Position numbers and translations under genes: made by a program
The notes under the pieces: model-generated
What the model saw: only the letters and a program-made list of their open reading frames with translations
The model's database searches: none
What the model was told of the DNA's origin: nothing
Shown: piece after piece, positions 37,769-43,505 of the stretch
Layout of the letters: every line of letters starts with the position of its first letter
Numbering within the stretch: the first letter of the stretch is position 1
IMG/VR virus record: IMGVR_UViG_3300046665_000589
Location: 1 to 64,000 of that record
From: a virus
Reading direction: 5' to 3' (one strand)
Length of the DNA: 64,000 bases

Positions 37769-39532
37769 TTAGGAGAGAACTCGGCCGATGCGCTGCTGCA
37801 TGCGCGCGGCCAGCGCCTGGGTGGGGGACTGCTTATCGACGACTTTCAGCGCGACTGCCATCGGGAAGGTGCCAAAGCTCATGTTATGCGAGGCTACCGG
37901 CGCCAGCTCGCAGGCCACGTGCAGGTAGCCCAAGGCGTGCATGTAGTGGTCCTGGCCCTCGTTGGACTTGACCCAGGTCCAGACCAGGTCCATCAGCGAA
38001 TTCATGATCTGCTTGCGTTTCATGTCCAGGCAGTGCTCGACGAACAGGTCGTCCTCGGCGGTGCCGTCGGCCTGCCACAGGATCATGCCGGCCTTGATCT
38101 TGAACATCACCTCGTCGAAGTTGACGTCGCGGTGGATCTTGGCCTGGTTGATCGGCAGCTTGCCCTCGGCCGGCTCGGCGCCGACCATCACCAGTTCGTA
38201 GGTGGCCAGCTTCTTGTTGCTGTGGTAGACGCCGCCGTACAGGTTCTTGTCGGTCTTTTGCAGCTGGTGCACCAGGTAGGTCTCGGGCTGGCTGTCGATG
38301 ACCGTCATTAAGACCCGAAACTGCTTCTTCAGCTCGTTCTTGCGGGTCGGCAGCTTGGCCAGCAGCACGCGCTCCTTGTGCACCACCAACAAGCGCCCAA
38401 GCTCGTCCTTGCGGCCGACCGCCACCGTGCACATCTGGCCGACGTCGATGCCCATGTTGTGCAGGCTGTTGGAGGCCAGCACGCCGTCGGTGAATTTGCA
38501 GGCGGTCAGGTCGCTGCGAGTGAGCTGGCTCTCGGACTCGTTGGCGGTCTCGCCCAGCGCCTGGTTGACGAACTCGGCCCAGGTCTTGTACTTGGTGATT
38601 TCCTGCACCAGCGAGGGCACGGTGACCACGTTGGGCACGTCGAACGGGGTGACGTAGTAGCCGATCGCCTCGAAGTTGTCGTTCGGGTTCTCGCAGATCC
38701 AGGCGCGGTGCTCCGGCGCCAGGCTGGGCTCCTCGTCGCAGTGCGGGCAGTGCAGGCGCGCGTGCTGCCAGTCGATGGTCGGCAGGTTGTACTTGGTGAT
38801 GTCGCGCAGGCGCCCGCTGTAGCCGGGGATCTTGACGTCGGTGTGAAAGCTCGGCACGAAGGTGTGGCTGCAATGGTGGCAGATCACCGCGCGGCGGTAA
38901 CGCATCGCGCTCTTCATGTCCAGCGCGATGCCGTCGTCGTCGATGGTCGGGGTGCCGAACTTGCGGGTCAGCTTGTAGCGCGAGTGCTTGATGCGCGACT
39001 GGTACTGGCCCAAGGCGTCCGGATCTGAGCGGTCGACCTCGTCGTGGATCAGCATGTCGGCCGGCACCGAGATGGCCGAGGTCGTGCCCGAGCAGCCGCG
39101 GGTGTACAAGAGGCTGGTGCCGATGCCCTTGATCTCGCTGTTGTCGAGGTCGCGGTCGACCACCTCGCGCAAGTCGGGCGACTCGTCGATAATCGGGGTC
39201 AGGCGGGTCTTGGAGAAGTTGGCCGAGTCGGCCGCGAACGGCATCGTCAGGATCACCGAGAAGTACGGCATCACGCGGCAGATCGCCAGCGCATAGCGCG
39301 CCATCGCCTCGGACATGCCGATCTGGGCGCACTTCTGGACGTACACCACGCGGCTGGTGTCGGACAGAATGTCCTTCTGGAATTCGTGGTCGACGAAGGA
39401 GAAGCGGTTGCCCTTGAGGTAGGTCTTGTCCTCGAGATAGCGCACGACGTCGCCCAGGTCGTAGCTGTTGAACAGCGCCGTTTCCAGGCGCGTCAGGTGG
39501 GCCCGGATTTCGGGATCGTCGACCAGGTTCAT
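37769..39532 (-). CDS. terL: terminase large subunit (lambda gpA-like)
   Basis: KCAQIGMSE Walker A variant, LIHDEVD Walker B, GTPT, CHHC/CPHC Zn motif, MGIDVG nuclease, DHY. Confidence 0.9.
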   Translation of the reverse strand: MNLVDDPEIRAHLTRLETALFNSYDLGDVVRYLEDKTYLKGNRFSFVDHEFQKDILSDTSRVVYVQKCAQIGMSEAMARYALAICRVMPYFSVILTMPFAADSANFSKTRLTPIIDESPDLREVVDRDLDNSEIKGIGTSLLYTRGCSGTTSAISVPADMLIHDEVDRSDPDALGQYQSRIKHSRYKLTRKFGTPTIDDDGIALDMKSAMRYRRAVICHHCSHTFVPSFHTDVKIPGYSGRLRDITKYNLPTIDWQHARLHCPHCDEEPSLAPEHRAWICENPNDNFEAIGYYVTPFDVPNVVTVPSLVQEITKYKTWAEFVNQALGETANESESQLTRSDLTACKFTDGVLASNSLHNMGIDVGQMCTVAVGRKDELGRLLVVHKERVLLAKLPTRKNELKKQFRVLMTVIDSQPETYLVHQLQKTDKNLYGGVYHSNKKLATYELVMVGAEPAEGKLPINQAKIHRDVNFDEVMFKIKAGMILWQADGTAEDDLFVEHCLDMKRKQIMNSLMDLVWTWVKSNEGQDHYMHALGYLHVACELAPVASHNMSFGTFPMAVALKVVDKQSPTQALAARMQQRIGRVLS

Positions 39533-40462: not shown

Positions 40463-41141
40463 GCAATAAGTATGCCAGCTTTGTCGGGATTTGCCAATTT
40501 TGTGCAAAAGTTGCGCAAAATTTTCAAAAATTTTTGAAAATCGGGTGGTTTTGGCTGTTTTGTTGCAGAAAAGCAACAAAAAGTTTGAAAAATTGCTGGA
40601 AATGGCGGAGGGACCTGGTAGGCCAGGCGCCGGCAACAGGCCAAAAGCTCCTATACGTCACCCAAGGCACGATCGGCACCGCCCGCGTGCGTTCCGTCGT
40701 CCGGGTTCGCGCGCCCCGCCACGGGCCTAAAAACGGCCTTGCTGGGCGTGGCACACTTCTTGCTTTAACCGGCCGGGCCATAGGCTAGGCCTATCAACTT
40801 GACAGTGGCCATAGCCTGGCACAGTTCATGCTTAAGCGCCGCTGACCAGTACAGTTACCAGTACAGTTACCAATACAGCGCCGGTACAGTGGACCAGTAC
40901 AGCGGCACTGTACGGGTGCGCCAGCCGACCTCGCCAGCCGACCCGTGCGGCCGCACGATAGGGAAAAGCTATCACCCCGATTAATAAAATAAATTGGTAA
41001 AAGTAAGTTATTCCCGGCATACTAAGGGCTCAGTAGCGGTGCGGCTGGTCCGGCGCACCGTGGGCGCTAGCTTTTGCCCCTGTAGTTTCCCATAACCGTT
41101 GTCCGGCGCACTGTGCGCCATCTATCCAAGGAGCCCTTACC
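40463..41141. promoter_or_regulatory. divergent control region; candidate packaging (cos/pac) region
   Basis: Non-coding, A/T tracts, 22-bp palindrome 40520-40541, TTGGCA-17-CATACT (-), TTGGTA-18-CATACT (+) with AT-rich upstream element. Confidence 0.6.
40846..40902 (+). repeat. five CCAGTACAG-type direct repeats, 11-13 bp period
   Basis: ccagtacagtta ccagtacagtta ccaatacagcg ccggtacagtgga ccagtacagcg. Confidence 0.85.
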
Positions 41142-41837
41142 ATGAAACTCACCCACATCTCCGCTGTCCTGTTGTCGCAATTCGTCGCTGCCGATGCCGG
41201 TTCAGTCGAAGCGCAACACGATGCCCGCTTGTGCGCCGTCTATACCGCCTACCGCACCGCCCTCAAGGACGGCAACAAAACCCAGCTGATGCTTGTGCAG
41301 GCCGCGTGCGACAAGTACGCCACGCCCAAGGCTTGCTTGGAACTGGTTGGCGCGGCCAAGGTCAACGCCGCTGCGCGCCGCGCCCATGCCACTTATGCAG
41401 CCTACAGGCTGGCGCTGGCGCAGGTTGGCATTCCGTCGCTGATGAAGGGCGCGGACATTGACGCGGTCGAAGCGCAGGCGGCGGCGCTGGCCGGGGAATT
41501 CGTCGAAGTCATCACGGTAGCGCTGACGCCCGAAACCAAGCCGGAAGCATCGGCAGAAGAAAAGGCAGCGGCCAAGGCCGCCAAGGAAGCGGAAAAGGCC
41601 AAGGCCGCGAAGGAAGCGGAGAAAGCGCACCGTGCGGAGGTGCAGGCAGCGGCGCAGAAGATCGCCGAAACCAACGCGCTGACCTTGGACGACATGGCGC
41701 GCGCCGTCATCAACGCCATGCGCGCCGGTGCGCTGTCGGCGGAACTGTTGCAGGAGCTCGACAGCGCGCTGGACGCAGTGGCCGCTACGGTCGTGCCGGT
41801 TGTCGTCAAAGTCGAGCCGGAACACGCCCCGACCTGA
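41142..41837 (+). CDS. Ala/Lys-rich hypothetical protein, first early-type gene
   Basis: RBS AAGGAG; KAAKEAEKA repeats. Confidence 0.8.
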   Translation: MKLTHISAVLLSQFVAADAGSVEAQHDARLCAVYTAYRTALKDGNKTQLMLVQAACDKYATPKACLELVGAAKVNAAARRAHATYAAYRLALAQVGIPSLMKGADIDAVEAQAAALAGEFVEVITVALTPETKPEASAEEKAAAKAAKEAEKAKAAKEAEKAHRAEVQAAAQKIAETNALTLDDMARAVINAMRAGALSAELLQELDSALDAVAATVVPVVVKVEPEHAPT

Positions 41838-42560
41838 TCCGCTTGCCCCGCATGGGGCATTTACCAAGGGCCGCGCGCCCTTGGTAAGTGTCTCAAGTCC
41901 AAGCATAGCGCTTGGCCGCGTCGGGTTCCCGCTTCGCTGGCGTCGCTTCGCCACTGTCGCGTGTCTCCTTCGTGTCGCTCTTAGCTGGCAGCAGTCGCGC
42001 CAGCAGACAATTTGATCCCGCCAACCTGACGCCAGTCGCGCCAGTGTCGCGCCCTTGCTTCGCGCCGTTTCCCTCGGTAGCGTCGCTTGGAGCGCTTCAT
42101 GGGCAACGCTGGCAGGGCGCGGGAATTGAAGCTTAAAAGCAAGAGTAGATATCGGTACAGTCAGCTAGATGAACGATGATATCGGATTGCGGAGCATAGA
42201 GCATTGACGCGGGCAGCAACTAGGCCAGCGCACAGCGCGCCGACAGTGATACGGTCGGCTACAGGGTGGGCCAGCAAGGTCATACCGCAGCGCGTAGATG
42301 CCTGATCCTTCGGGAGCTAAACCGGCCACACCGGGCACGCAAATAACGCTAGTCACTGGACACATTCGATCCTTGCCAAGGCCAGCCACATCGGCTGGCA
42401 AATCCTAGACGGCATGCAAGCCGGACTAGGCCGCGATGAGCGGGACCGCTTTGGCAAGCGGCCATACGCCTTGCCCTCCCCGGCGTCGAAATAGGGGAGG
42501 GGGAATACCCTGCGCATTGTGGACTGTTCAGTGCGCAGTCATTCCAGACAGGAGGACCAC
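41838..42560 (+). ncRNA. candidate large structured non-coding RNA
   Basis: ~720 nt with no credible ORF, many hairpins; no known family recognised. Confidence 0.45.
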
Positions 42561-42869
42561 ATGGACCTGCAATCGGCCTTGCGCGGCATCCTGCCGCAGA
42601 TCACGCCAGCAACACCGGCAGCACCGGCCAAACCGAAGGCGAAGGCGAAGGCGAAGGCGAAGGCGAAACTGCCGCGGCGCCTGGCCGTCGGTAGTTTCGA
42701 CTGCGGCCGCAAGGCGTTCGACACTACCGGCACGGTCGGCCGCTTCGACCCGAGCCGGCCGCCGCCGGTGCACCCGCCCGGCTATTCCGAGCACCGGTGC
42801 GACCCGCACCGCATCCACCTGAGCACCACCCGCGCGCTGCGCCTGTGGTCGAAAACCGAAGTCAAATAG
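42561..42869 (+). CDS. hypothetical protein with (KA)n tract
   Basis: RBS AGGAGG; tandem GAAGGC x5. Confidence 0.75.
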   Translation: MDLQSALRGILPQITPATPAAPAKPKAKAKAKAKAKLPRRLAVGSFDCGRKAFDTTGTVGRFDPSRPPPVHPPGYSEHRCDPHRIHLSTTRALRLWSKTEVK

Positions 42870-42878
42870 GAGAACATC

Positions 42879-43073
42879 ATGAAACGCATCACCGTTTTCG
42901 GCTTTGCCGTGATCCACGCGGCGCTGCTGCTGTTGCTGGACCAGATCGCCAGCGAGAATTTCCTGGGCTACGGCCTGCTGCTGCGCGGGCTGGTCATGGT
43001 CATGCTCGCGGCCGATGTCGTGGTCGCCTACGAGGCGCTGCGCGGGCTGTGGCGGGCCGAGGTGCGGGCATGA
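42879..43073 (+). CDS. small membrane protein
   Basis: RBS AGGAG, two TM-like segments. Confidence 0.75.
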   Translation: MKRITVFGFAVIHAALLLLLDQIASENFLGYGLLLRGLVMVMLAADVVVAYEALRGLWRAEVRA

Positions 43074-43144
43074 ACCGCGGCCTGGCGGTGGGTTTGCTGA
43101 TGCTGGCCTGCATGGCGGTACCGGCGCTGTTGCGGTTGCTGTAG
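43070..43144 (+). CDS. 24-aa hydrophobic peptide
   Basis: ATGA overlap, RBS GAGG; MNRGLAVGLLMLACMAVPALLRLL. Confidence 0.45.
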   Translation: MNRGLAVGLLMLACMAVPALLRLL

Positions 43145-43173
43145 AGTAAGGACAGGGGCGGTGTCGGTTTCGA

Positions 43174-43202
43174 TTGAAACACGCCCCTGTTCGATGTAAG
43201 TT
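43174..43202 (+). promoter_or_regulatory. sigma70-type promoter within an inverted repeat
   Basis: TTGAAA-17 bp-TAAGTT; IR ACAGGGGCG/CGCCCCTGT 43152-43190. Confidence 0.5.
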
Positions 43203-43231
43203 ATTTAAACCAAAATAAAAGGGGAAATTGT

Positions 43232-43429
43232 ATGTACAAAGCACGCAAAATGCTGCCCAAGGAATTGCAGGCAGCAGACAACAAAGGTCGCCAGCGCGTT
43301 TTCTGCGTTGAGCACGACAGCGGCAAGGTTGTCAGGGCTAACCTGACTTGGCCGGAGGCCTGCACGGAGGCGCGCGCCCGCACGCGCAACGAGGTCGAGC
43401 GCAGCTTCGCCGACCTCTGCCCGGCCTAG
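43232..43429 (+). CDS. hypothetical protein
   Basis: RBS AAGGGG. Confidence 0.65.
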   Translation: MYKARKMLPKELQAADNKGRQRVFCVEHDSGKVVRANLTWPEACTEARARTRNEVERSFADLCPA

Positions 43430-43431
43430 CA

Positions 43432-43486
43432 GGACGAAACCCGGCCGCGCGCCGGGTCTGTGCGTGTGACGCACACTGACGAGTCC
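43432..43486 (+). ncRNA. hammerhead ribozyme, type II
   Basis: GGAC-GAA-ACCCGGC/GCCGGGU-C-UGUGCGU/ACGCACA-CUGACGA-GUCC: complete catalytic core and three stems. Confidence 0.93.
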
Positions 43487-43505
43487 ACCCACCACGGAGC
43501 CCACC

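Follow-up and report, generated by a model that had tools for sequence, protein, structure and literature searches.

Comparative sequence evidence for a large, previously uncatalogued structured RNA in a clade of soil siphophages

Introduction

Why would a phage genome keep some 0.7 kb of DNA with no credible reading frame between two genes of one operon? The question is raised by the window analyzed here, 64 kb from the start of an IMG/VR virus record whose total length is 93.5 kb and which is complete according to CheckV; in this window the gap follows the gene for a 231-residue protein. The original prediction was that this gap encodes a large structured RNA on the plus strand, belonging to no recognized class. 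Non-coding RNAs that are both large and intricately folded are seldom met in bacteria and phages, and the few known classes, namely ribosomal RNA, RNase P, group I and group II introns, OLE, GOLLD, ROOL and raiA, are each a catalyst, the core of a ribonucleoprotein or, as recently recognized, a self-assembling cage. The comparative analysis reported here indicates, at the level of sequence, that positions 41838-42548 of the window encode a large structured RNA (~0.7 kb) of several domains, whose family has not been catalogued before.

Results

A stretch without coding signal

The source phage is a G+C-rich siphophage, in which a minus-strand and a plus-strand series of genes diverge (Table 1). 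Its terminase is 31.6% identical to the best match in a search of 50,697 deposited phage records, and the phage thus belongs to a clade without a close sequenced isolate among those records. The stretch under study, which is single-copy in the 93.5-kb genome, follows the stop codon of the 231-residue gene (TGA, 41835-41837) and precedes the AGGAGG (42550-42555) and the ATG (42561) of the next gene. The bounds that we give for the RNA within it are limits of conservation, not mapped transcript ends.

The GC content of the stretch is 0.57-0.67. Between codon positions it differs by 0.04-0.16 (maximum minus minimum), versus 0.3-0.6 in the flanking genes, and third-position periodicity is absent from the stretch in the ten phages examined. 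On either strand one can draw open reading frames of 36-78 codons, which are not kept in relatives; the longest in any member has 158 codons and occurs in one relative, from which close relatives differ at that place by insertions or deletions of 1 nt. The prediction that the gap has no credible reading frame is thus borne out.

The hairpins that had been named within the gap are all present at the expected places; in the window, CCGAC/GTCGG is found at 42240/42254, a UUCG hairpin at 42306, and further pairing at 42381/42393. Single-sequence folding gives a modest signal (z = -3.25 on the plus strand and -2.88 on the minus strand, from 20 shuffles), which by itself is unconvincing, whereas the comparative evidence is far beyond chance.

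Rfam 15, whose families include GOLLD, ROOL, OLE, HEARO, group I and group II introns, RNase P, tmRNA, 6S and the phi29 pRNA, gave zero matches at the gathering threshold in the whole window and in eight related loci. With E-values up to 10, the stretch and the related loci gave only scattered weak matches to unrelated small families, and ARAGORN detected neither a tRNA nor a tmRNA gene in the 64-kb window. The RNA therefore falls, as had been proposed, into none of the recognized classes covered by these scans.

Table 1. Positions, in the window, of the predicted RNA, its elements and the surrounding genes
Feature	Position	Strand	Remarks
Portal, protease, major head protein, tail genes, 2339-aa tape measure	further leftwards	minus	
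gpA-type large terminase	37769-39532	minus	
HTH small-terminase-like gene	leftwards from 40636	minus	Start of minus-strand series
Small-gene series	rightwards from 41142	plus	Function not assigned
Upstream partner gene, 231 aa	41142-41837	plus	Open reading frame and periodicity; homologues precede the RNA in nine contigs
Structured RNA	41838-42548	plus	Bounds set by conservation, from stop codon to 3' arm of terminal hairpin
5' domain, first half	41838-41983	plus	Matched by covariance model R2, built from other phages only
Hairpin H1	41844-41859	plus	Short stem, rich in G+C, immediately 3' of the stop codon in all relatives
Hairpin H2	41853-41871/41877-41895	plus	19 bp with three G-U pairs; inverted repeat and minimum-free-energy fold
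Hairpin H4	41899-41916	plus	Loop region conserved in sequence across the family
ACAAU-core motif	42005-42016	plus	Most conserved unpaired motif of the 5' domain; version of the window
Variable central domain	42140-42400	plus	Type of the window common only to L011
Hairpin P-a	42404-42430	plus	Outer stem 42404-42408/42426-42430, inner stem 42410-42413/42420-42423
Hairpin P-b	42431-42443	plus	4-bp stem, invariant GAUGA loop; 100% paired, both partners changed in 3 of 4 pairs
Hairpin P-c	42446-42461	plus	Invariant UGGC loop; 98.7% paired, both partners changed in 4 of 7 pairs
Stem S1	42466-42470/42482-42486	plus	Nearly invariant
Stem S2	42474-42481/42494-42501	plus	Crosses S1; complementary in several versions
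Terminal hairpin P-term	42502-42545	plus	Lower stem 42502-42506/42541-42545, upper stem 42510-42519/42530-42539
Ribosome-binding site and next gene	42550-42869	plus	Ribosome-binding site 42550-42555, ATG 42561, 102 aa

Related loci in other phages

No near or distant DNA match to the stretch was found in the phage record collection, and the flanking proteins had no match in IMG/VR, either as single sequences or as a family alignment. Used as a probe, the large terminase retrieved 18 related IMG/VR phage contigs, with 52-81% identity. The layout of the window recurs in nine IMG/VR contigs (L006, L008, L009, L011-L015 and L020); that is, a helical protein of ~230-260 residues is followed by a non-coding stretch and then by the ribosome-binding site of the next gene, with homologues of the upstream protein that are often only ~35% identical. 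The conserved 3' block begins 535-594 nt after the stop codon in eight relatives and 592 nt after it in the window, and the next gene follows the stop codon by 690-723 nt, or by ~470 nt in L012, which is without the middle part. The last ~145 nt of the stretch have 74-93% DNA identity, above that of the neighboring protein genes, and more islands of identity are scattered along the full length of alignment A1.

The members of the family form a clade of uncultured siphophages of 85-93 kb from soil and rhizosphere. A motif scan of IMG/VR gave 95 stretches, among which nhmmer upheld only the nine relatives already known, and stricter scans of metagenome and genome contigs returned chance matches only; they thus provide no prophage and no clue to the host. 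Among sequencing runs, the stretch of the window was found in no RNA run and in seven rhizosphere metagenome runs (DNA), four of which contain identical short contigs only, with no variants and no ends. In other public assemblies the upstream 231-residue protein has 17 further homologues, which implies that closer relatives of the window's RNA exist.

Conservation of pairing in the 5' and central parts

For this region, seven phages that align well were folded with RNAalifold, with 135 pairs in 20 helices as the result. Among these helices are a 19-pair hairpin immediately downstream of the stop codon, another hairpin whose loop is conserved in sequence, and two long-range helices that close sub-domains (A1 columns 186-193/309-314 and 353-361/596-604), the latter spanning ~250 nt. 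In these seven phages 90.6% of the alignment cells are paired, versus 31-42% with slid partners, and 65 of the 135 pairs have changed on both sides, versus 14-22 in the slid controls, a covariation that 0 of 500 shuffles reach; here as elsewhere in this work, pairing was scored on structures taken from the alignments being scored or fitted to a model.

Because the 5' and central structure came from the very alignment on which its pairing was scored, a separate test was made with a covariance model, R2, which covers the first 170 positions in eight phages, with the window left out. R2 finds the window on the plus strand at 41838-41983, with 41.8 bits and an E-value of 3e-8, and it matches L016 as well, immediately 3' of the stop codon of a 242-aa gene, with an E-value of 1.8e-8.

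The 5' domain, of ~300 nt, is conserved, and its elements can be followed individually. The 3' arm of H1 overlaps H2, such that the two stems compete. The stem homologous to H2 has 19 aligned pairs, 10 of which have changed on both sides; for H4 the proportion is 5 of 6, and the same loop motif is seen in both L007 and L016. These two phages also have the motif with the ACAAU core, whose positions A190-A193 are invariant in alignment A1. The 5' part of the window also contains short direct repeats.

The 3' domain and its crossing stems

The 3' domain, of ~145 nt, is conserved; it begins with three small hairpins, continues with two crossing stems, a candidate pseudoknot, and closes with the long terminal hairpin. 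Across 11 members, 93.6% of the cells of this domain (42404-42545) are paired, versus 35-39% when partners are slid by 1-3 columns, and 27 of its 42 pairs have changed on both sides, values that 0 of 500 shuffles reach; since the 11 full members include several close kin (L020/L009/L015), the independent compensatory events are fewer than the cell counts suggest. A covariance model of the 3' domain, R1, recovered all ten of its seed sequences and also found L007, which lies outside the seed, with 60 bits and an E-value of 1.7e-16. The stems of the L007 domain are rebuilt from different letters, i.e., they are compensated, and L007 is among the phages in which pairs of P-c have changed on both sides. 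In the upper stem of P-term, 10 of 11 pairs have changed on both sides, and its G-U pairs arise only when the plus strand is read. P-term ends 4 nt before the ribosome-binding site in the window, and 4-8 nt before it in every member.

Particular attention is due to stems S1 and S2. The original prediction had included the pairing of CCCUCCCC with GGGGAGGG, and this is indeed a conserved pairing; it is not, however, a plain hairpin, since it crosses a second conserved stem, S1. Among ten phages, S2 occurs in seven complementary versions; the window has CCCUCCCC/GGGGAGGG, and three other phages share UUUCCC/GGGAAA. L007 adds an eighth version. S1 varies at one pair only, which is G-C in 7 cases, A-U in 2 and G-U in 2, and the S1/S2 loops have 0-3 and 6-8 nt. 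Such loop lengths allow a classical pseudoknot, which S1 and S2 may form together; they may also be stems that alternate. Across the clade, then, place, length and base-pairing of the stretch are kept, and its sequence is kept little. This comparison of homologues and the empty Rfam scan are among the checks that had been proposed for the prediction.

The strand on which the RNA is encoded

Among the predicted pairs, G-U combinations outnumber A-C combinations roughly fivefold (119 versus 25). RNAalifold itself rewards G-U pairs, and for that reason the reverse complements were also folded. In all three alignments the minus strand has fewer predicted pairs; its energies are worse, its covariation terms are smaller, and G-U and A-C are almost equally frequent. 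The excess of G-U over A-C and the better folding of the plus strand show that the RNA is read in the direction of the flanking genes. With the covariation in 11 contigs, the covarying candidate pseudoknot and the two detections by covariance models, these strand tests support the prediction of a large structured RNA on the plus strand, and we regard it as very probable that a conserved structured RNA of that strand exists.

A variable and dispensable central domain

The central domain is of several types. That of the window is common only to L011, to which it is 56% identical; another type, closed by a long-range helix, is found in six phages; L006 has a type of its own, and L012 has none. 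The predicted fold of the window's own central domain is therefore weakly supported, by thermodynamic prediction and by one relative, L011. In L012 (L012:5235-5420, minus strand, and downstream) the whole domain, ~270 nt, is cleanly lost, a natural deletion which indicates that it is dispensable. The same phage has an extra open reading frame of ~58 codons between the terminal hairpin of the RNA and the usual downstream gene.

Divergent forms in the same genomic slot

By tblastn, no recognizable homologue of the 231-residue protein was found in L003/L004, L007, L010 or L016, where L003/L004 are the closest terminase relatives of the window phage. L004, L007 and L016 have a gene of ~240-264 aa at the equivalent position, with similar N-terminal motifs, and after it 700-1000 nt of non-periodic DNA that opens with the same two abutting hairpins. 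L007 and L016 carry parts of the family proper. The ~240-aa protein of L004 has a weakly similar C-terminal domain, for which profile comparison gives a probability of 20% over the C-terminal 32 residues only.

In L004 (4342-5076, minus strand), the equivalent slot holds a different stretch of ~730 nt, non-periodic and rich in hairpins, which comes after a helical protein of ~238 residues and shares a short motif with L010 (1-800, minus strand). The motif set common to L004 and L010 is not that of the family proper. Models R1 and R2 do not detect this stretch, and its relatives are too few to show covariation. It may represent a second, divergent family of large RNA in the equivalent slot.

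Neighboring genes and transcription signals

The 231-residue protein is all-helical and acidic (pI 5-6), and its AlphaFold model has 9 helices with a pLDDT of 81.7. In searches it was assigned to no Pfam or PHROG family and to no named Atlas cluster, and no PDB entry matched its fold. Because the protein is acidic, a complex between it and the RNA is not suggested. Downstream, the neighbor varies among phages, from the 102-aa gene of the window to the MRK... family and others, whereas the type of upstream protein is constant. This combination argues against a leader dedicated to one downstream gene. The 102-aa gene opens with Lys-Ala repeats that are encoded by a 12-nt tandem repeat (42626-42667), where the assemblies of other runs break.

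A scan of positions 40500-43500 found no sigma-70-type promoter and no intrinsic terminator. Within the RNA itself, the invariant TTGGCA of P-c was considered as part of a sigma-54 or sigma-70 promoter and was rejected, since its spacing is not of the -24/-12 type and no such promoter emerged from the scan. Two near-consensus sigma-54-type -24/-12 boxes (40749-40764 and 40817-40832, plus strand), with GG and GC at a distance of 12 nt, lie in the divergent region that separates the small-terminase gene from the 231-residue gene. They point rightward and may drive or gate transcription of the unit to which the RNA belongs. In the same region an 8-9-nt unit with a GTACAG core is repeated approximately six times, at a spacing of ~11-13 nt (40847-40915), followed by two copies of a 13-nt direct repeat (40922-40947) and an A+T-rich tract (40970-41015). 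The GTACAG array could be a binding array for a regulator or for the terminase.

Discussion

Comparison with known RNAs

Hairpins cut by RNase III are known from polycistronic early transcripts of phages, namely at the R sites of T7 and in the N leader of lambda, where they are single hairpins of ~50-60 nt. The stretch described here likewise has long, irregular intercistronic hairpins in a phage operon, one after a stop codon and one before a ribosome-binding site, with pairing rather than sequence conserved; it differs in that its two hairpins bracket ~600 nt of further conserved structure. RNA II of ColE1, a structured replication pre-primer of ~550 nt whose folding is conserved and required for function, is similar in being non-coding, several hundred nucleotides long and conserved in its folding. 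Here, by contrast, there are no origin features, no antisense partner and no homology, and the position within an operon is unlike that of a plasmid origin.

The closest parallels are GOLLD and ROOL, which are phage-borne RNAs of ~580 to >800 nt that form cages and have no assigned function (PMC12286853). The present RNA is like them in size class, in its many helices and candidate pseudoknot, in being phage-encoded and in having no assigned function. GOLLD consists of one universally conserved region, one that is less conserved and a disordered linker (PMC12286853), and conservation is uneven here as well, with conserved 5' and 3' domains on either side of a variable, dispensable center. GOLLD and ROOL often lie near tRNA genes in phages or prophages (PMC12286853), whereas the 64-kb window has no tRNA genes, and the RNA lies between two protein genes of one operon, after one type of protein. 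It also differs in that neither Rfam model matches it even at E-values up to 10, and in host range and habitat, being from soil and rhizosphere phages with 57-65% G+C. The resemblance to GOLLD and ROOL is one of kind only. A search of IMG/VR for structured RNAs has yielded ~8,500 candidates, with motifs of 29-151 nt (PMC10690425). The data source is the same, and so is the type of evidence, i.e., covariation in phage intergenic regions; because those motifs do not exceed 151 nt, at most fragments of the present RNA could be among them.

A proposed mode of action

The overall picture that we favor, with somewhat more confidence than doubt, is that a conserved RNA is cut out of an operon transcript at its end hairpins and acts as a stable RNA. 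For the narrower proposition that it is released and acts in trans, we put the chances at about even. The RNA would be transcribed within a rightward operon that starts in the divergent region, 40637-41141; it is probably part of a transcript from there, given that no sigma-70-type promoter or terminator was found between 40500 and 43500. This transcript would presumably be an early one. A host nuclease specific for double strands, such as RNase III, would cut it at the two long, near-perfect end hairpins, 41853-41895 and 42502-42545. The first, with 19 bp, has the approximately two turns of near-perfect double-stranded RNA of an RNase III substrate; the second has 5 + 10 bp with an internal loop, and is longer in most relatives. 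By their likeness to the sites of T7 and lambda, both are candidate processing sites for RNase III.

Cutting would leave the upstream mRNA with a protective 3' hairpin that stabilizes the message, would let the downstream mRNA begin at a defined point just before its ribosome-binding site, and would free a stable RNA of ~650 nt that acts on its own. What the freed RNA might do is a matter for speculation; by analogy with other large ornate phage RNAs, we would guess at a scaffold or a decoy during host takeover. That the RNA represents a new functional class, i.e., a large ribozyme or a self-assembling RNA machine made with the upstream helical protein of ~240 residues, seems to us rather improbable. 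On that reading, the divergent versions that appear to occupy the same slot throughout the clade, L003/L004, L010 and L016 among them, would point to a step that infection requires, such as the shutdown of a host defense or the priming or organizing of phage DNA.

Alternative explanations

The RNA might instead act only in cis, as a giant intercistronic leader or trailer that is never a separate molecule and that stabilizes the upstream mRNA, sets how often transcription reads through into the genes downstream, or controls how the next cistron is translated. The lack of a promoter or terminator inside the RNA fits such a role, as do its ends, of which the 5' one abuts a stop codon and the 3' hairpin lies 4-8 nt from a ribosome-binding site in every member; S1 and S2, moreover, could equally be mutually exclusive stems, and hence a switch. 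On the other hand, 700 nt with ~20 conserved helices far exceed what known bacterial leaders, antiterminator RNAs or RNase III sites need, the comparators being lambda nut, HK022 put and the R sites of T7. The downstream gene, too, is not conserved among members, and in L012 an extra small gene lies between the RNA and the usual downstream gene. We take this explanation seriously, and nevertheless hold it to be unlikely.

The pairing could also be a property of the DNA, with a structured single strand at a replication origin, at a site of priming, or at a packaging signal close to the terminase genes. The stretch is 1.2 kb from the small-terminase gene and adjoins the repeat-rich divergent region, the 5' part of the window's stretch has short direct repeats of its own, and folded single-stranded DNA, too, tolerates G-T mismatches. 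However, helices that span ~250 nt, a candidate pseudoknot and an excess of G-U are typical of RNA and not of protein-binding palindromes; the stretch, with its GC of 0.57-0.67, contains neither an iteron array nor an A+T-rich unwinding tract; and the relatives keep the pairing, not the sequence. A role at the DNA level is thus very unlikely. That the stretch encodes one or more small proteins or is a decayed gene, with incidental hairpins, is scarcely credible, since the reading frames that can be drawn (36-78 codons on both strands, 158 in one relative) vary in place and frame between members and are broken by single-base insertions or deletions between close relatives, none of ten phages shows codon periodicity, and compensatory changes would not be expected in coding or decaying DNA.

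Significance

The RNA is well suited for further study: with clear covariation over ~180 base pairs and a candidate pseudoknot, it lends itself to the determination of its structure and to tests of function, and it has a fixed genomic partner. The known classes of large RNA come from gut, lake and Firmicute settings; with the present family, the range of such RNAs extends to G+C-rich soil phages.

The operon also holds a candidate self-cleaving ribozyme. Within the same transcription unit, 870 nt beyond the RNA, an intergenic segment (43432-43493, plus strand) matches the model of the type II hammerhead with 29.6 bits, versus a gathering score of 37, and a local E-value of 0.0002, and falls below threshold in the scan of the whole window. 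This near-threshold candidate possibly counts toward a processed transcript, and it has the core elements CGAAAC, GUC and CUGAnGA in place.
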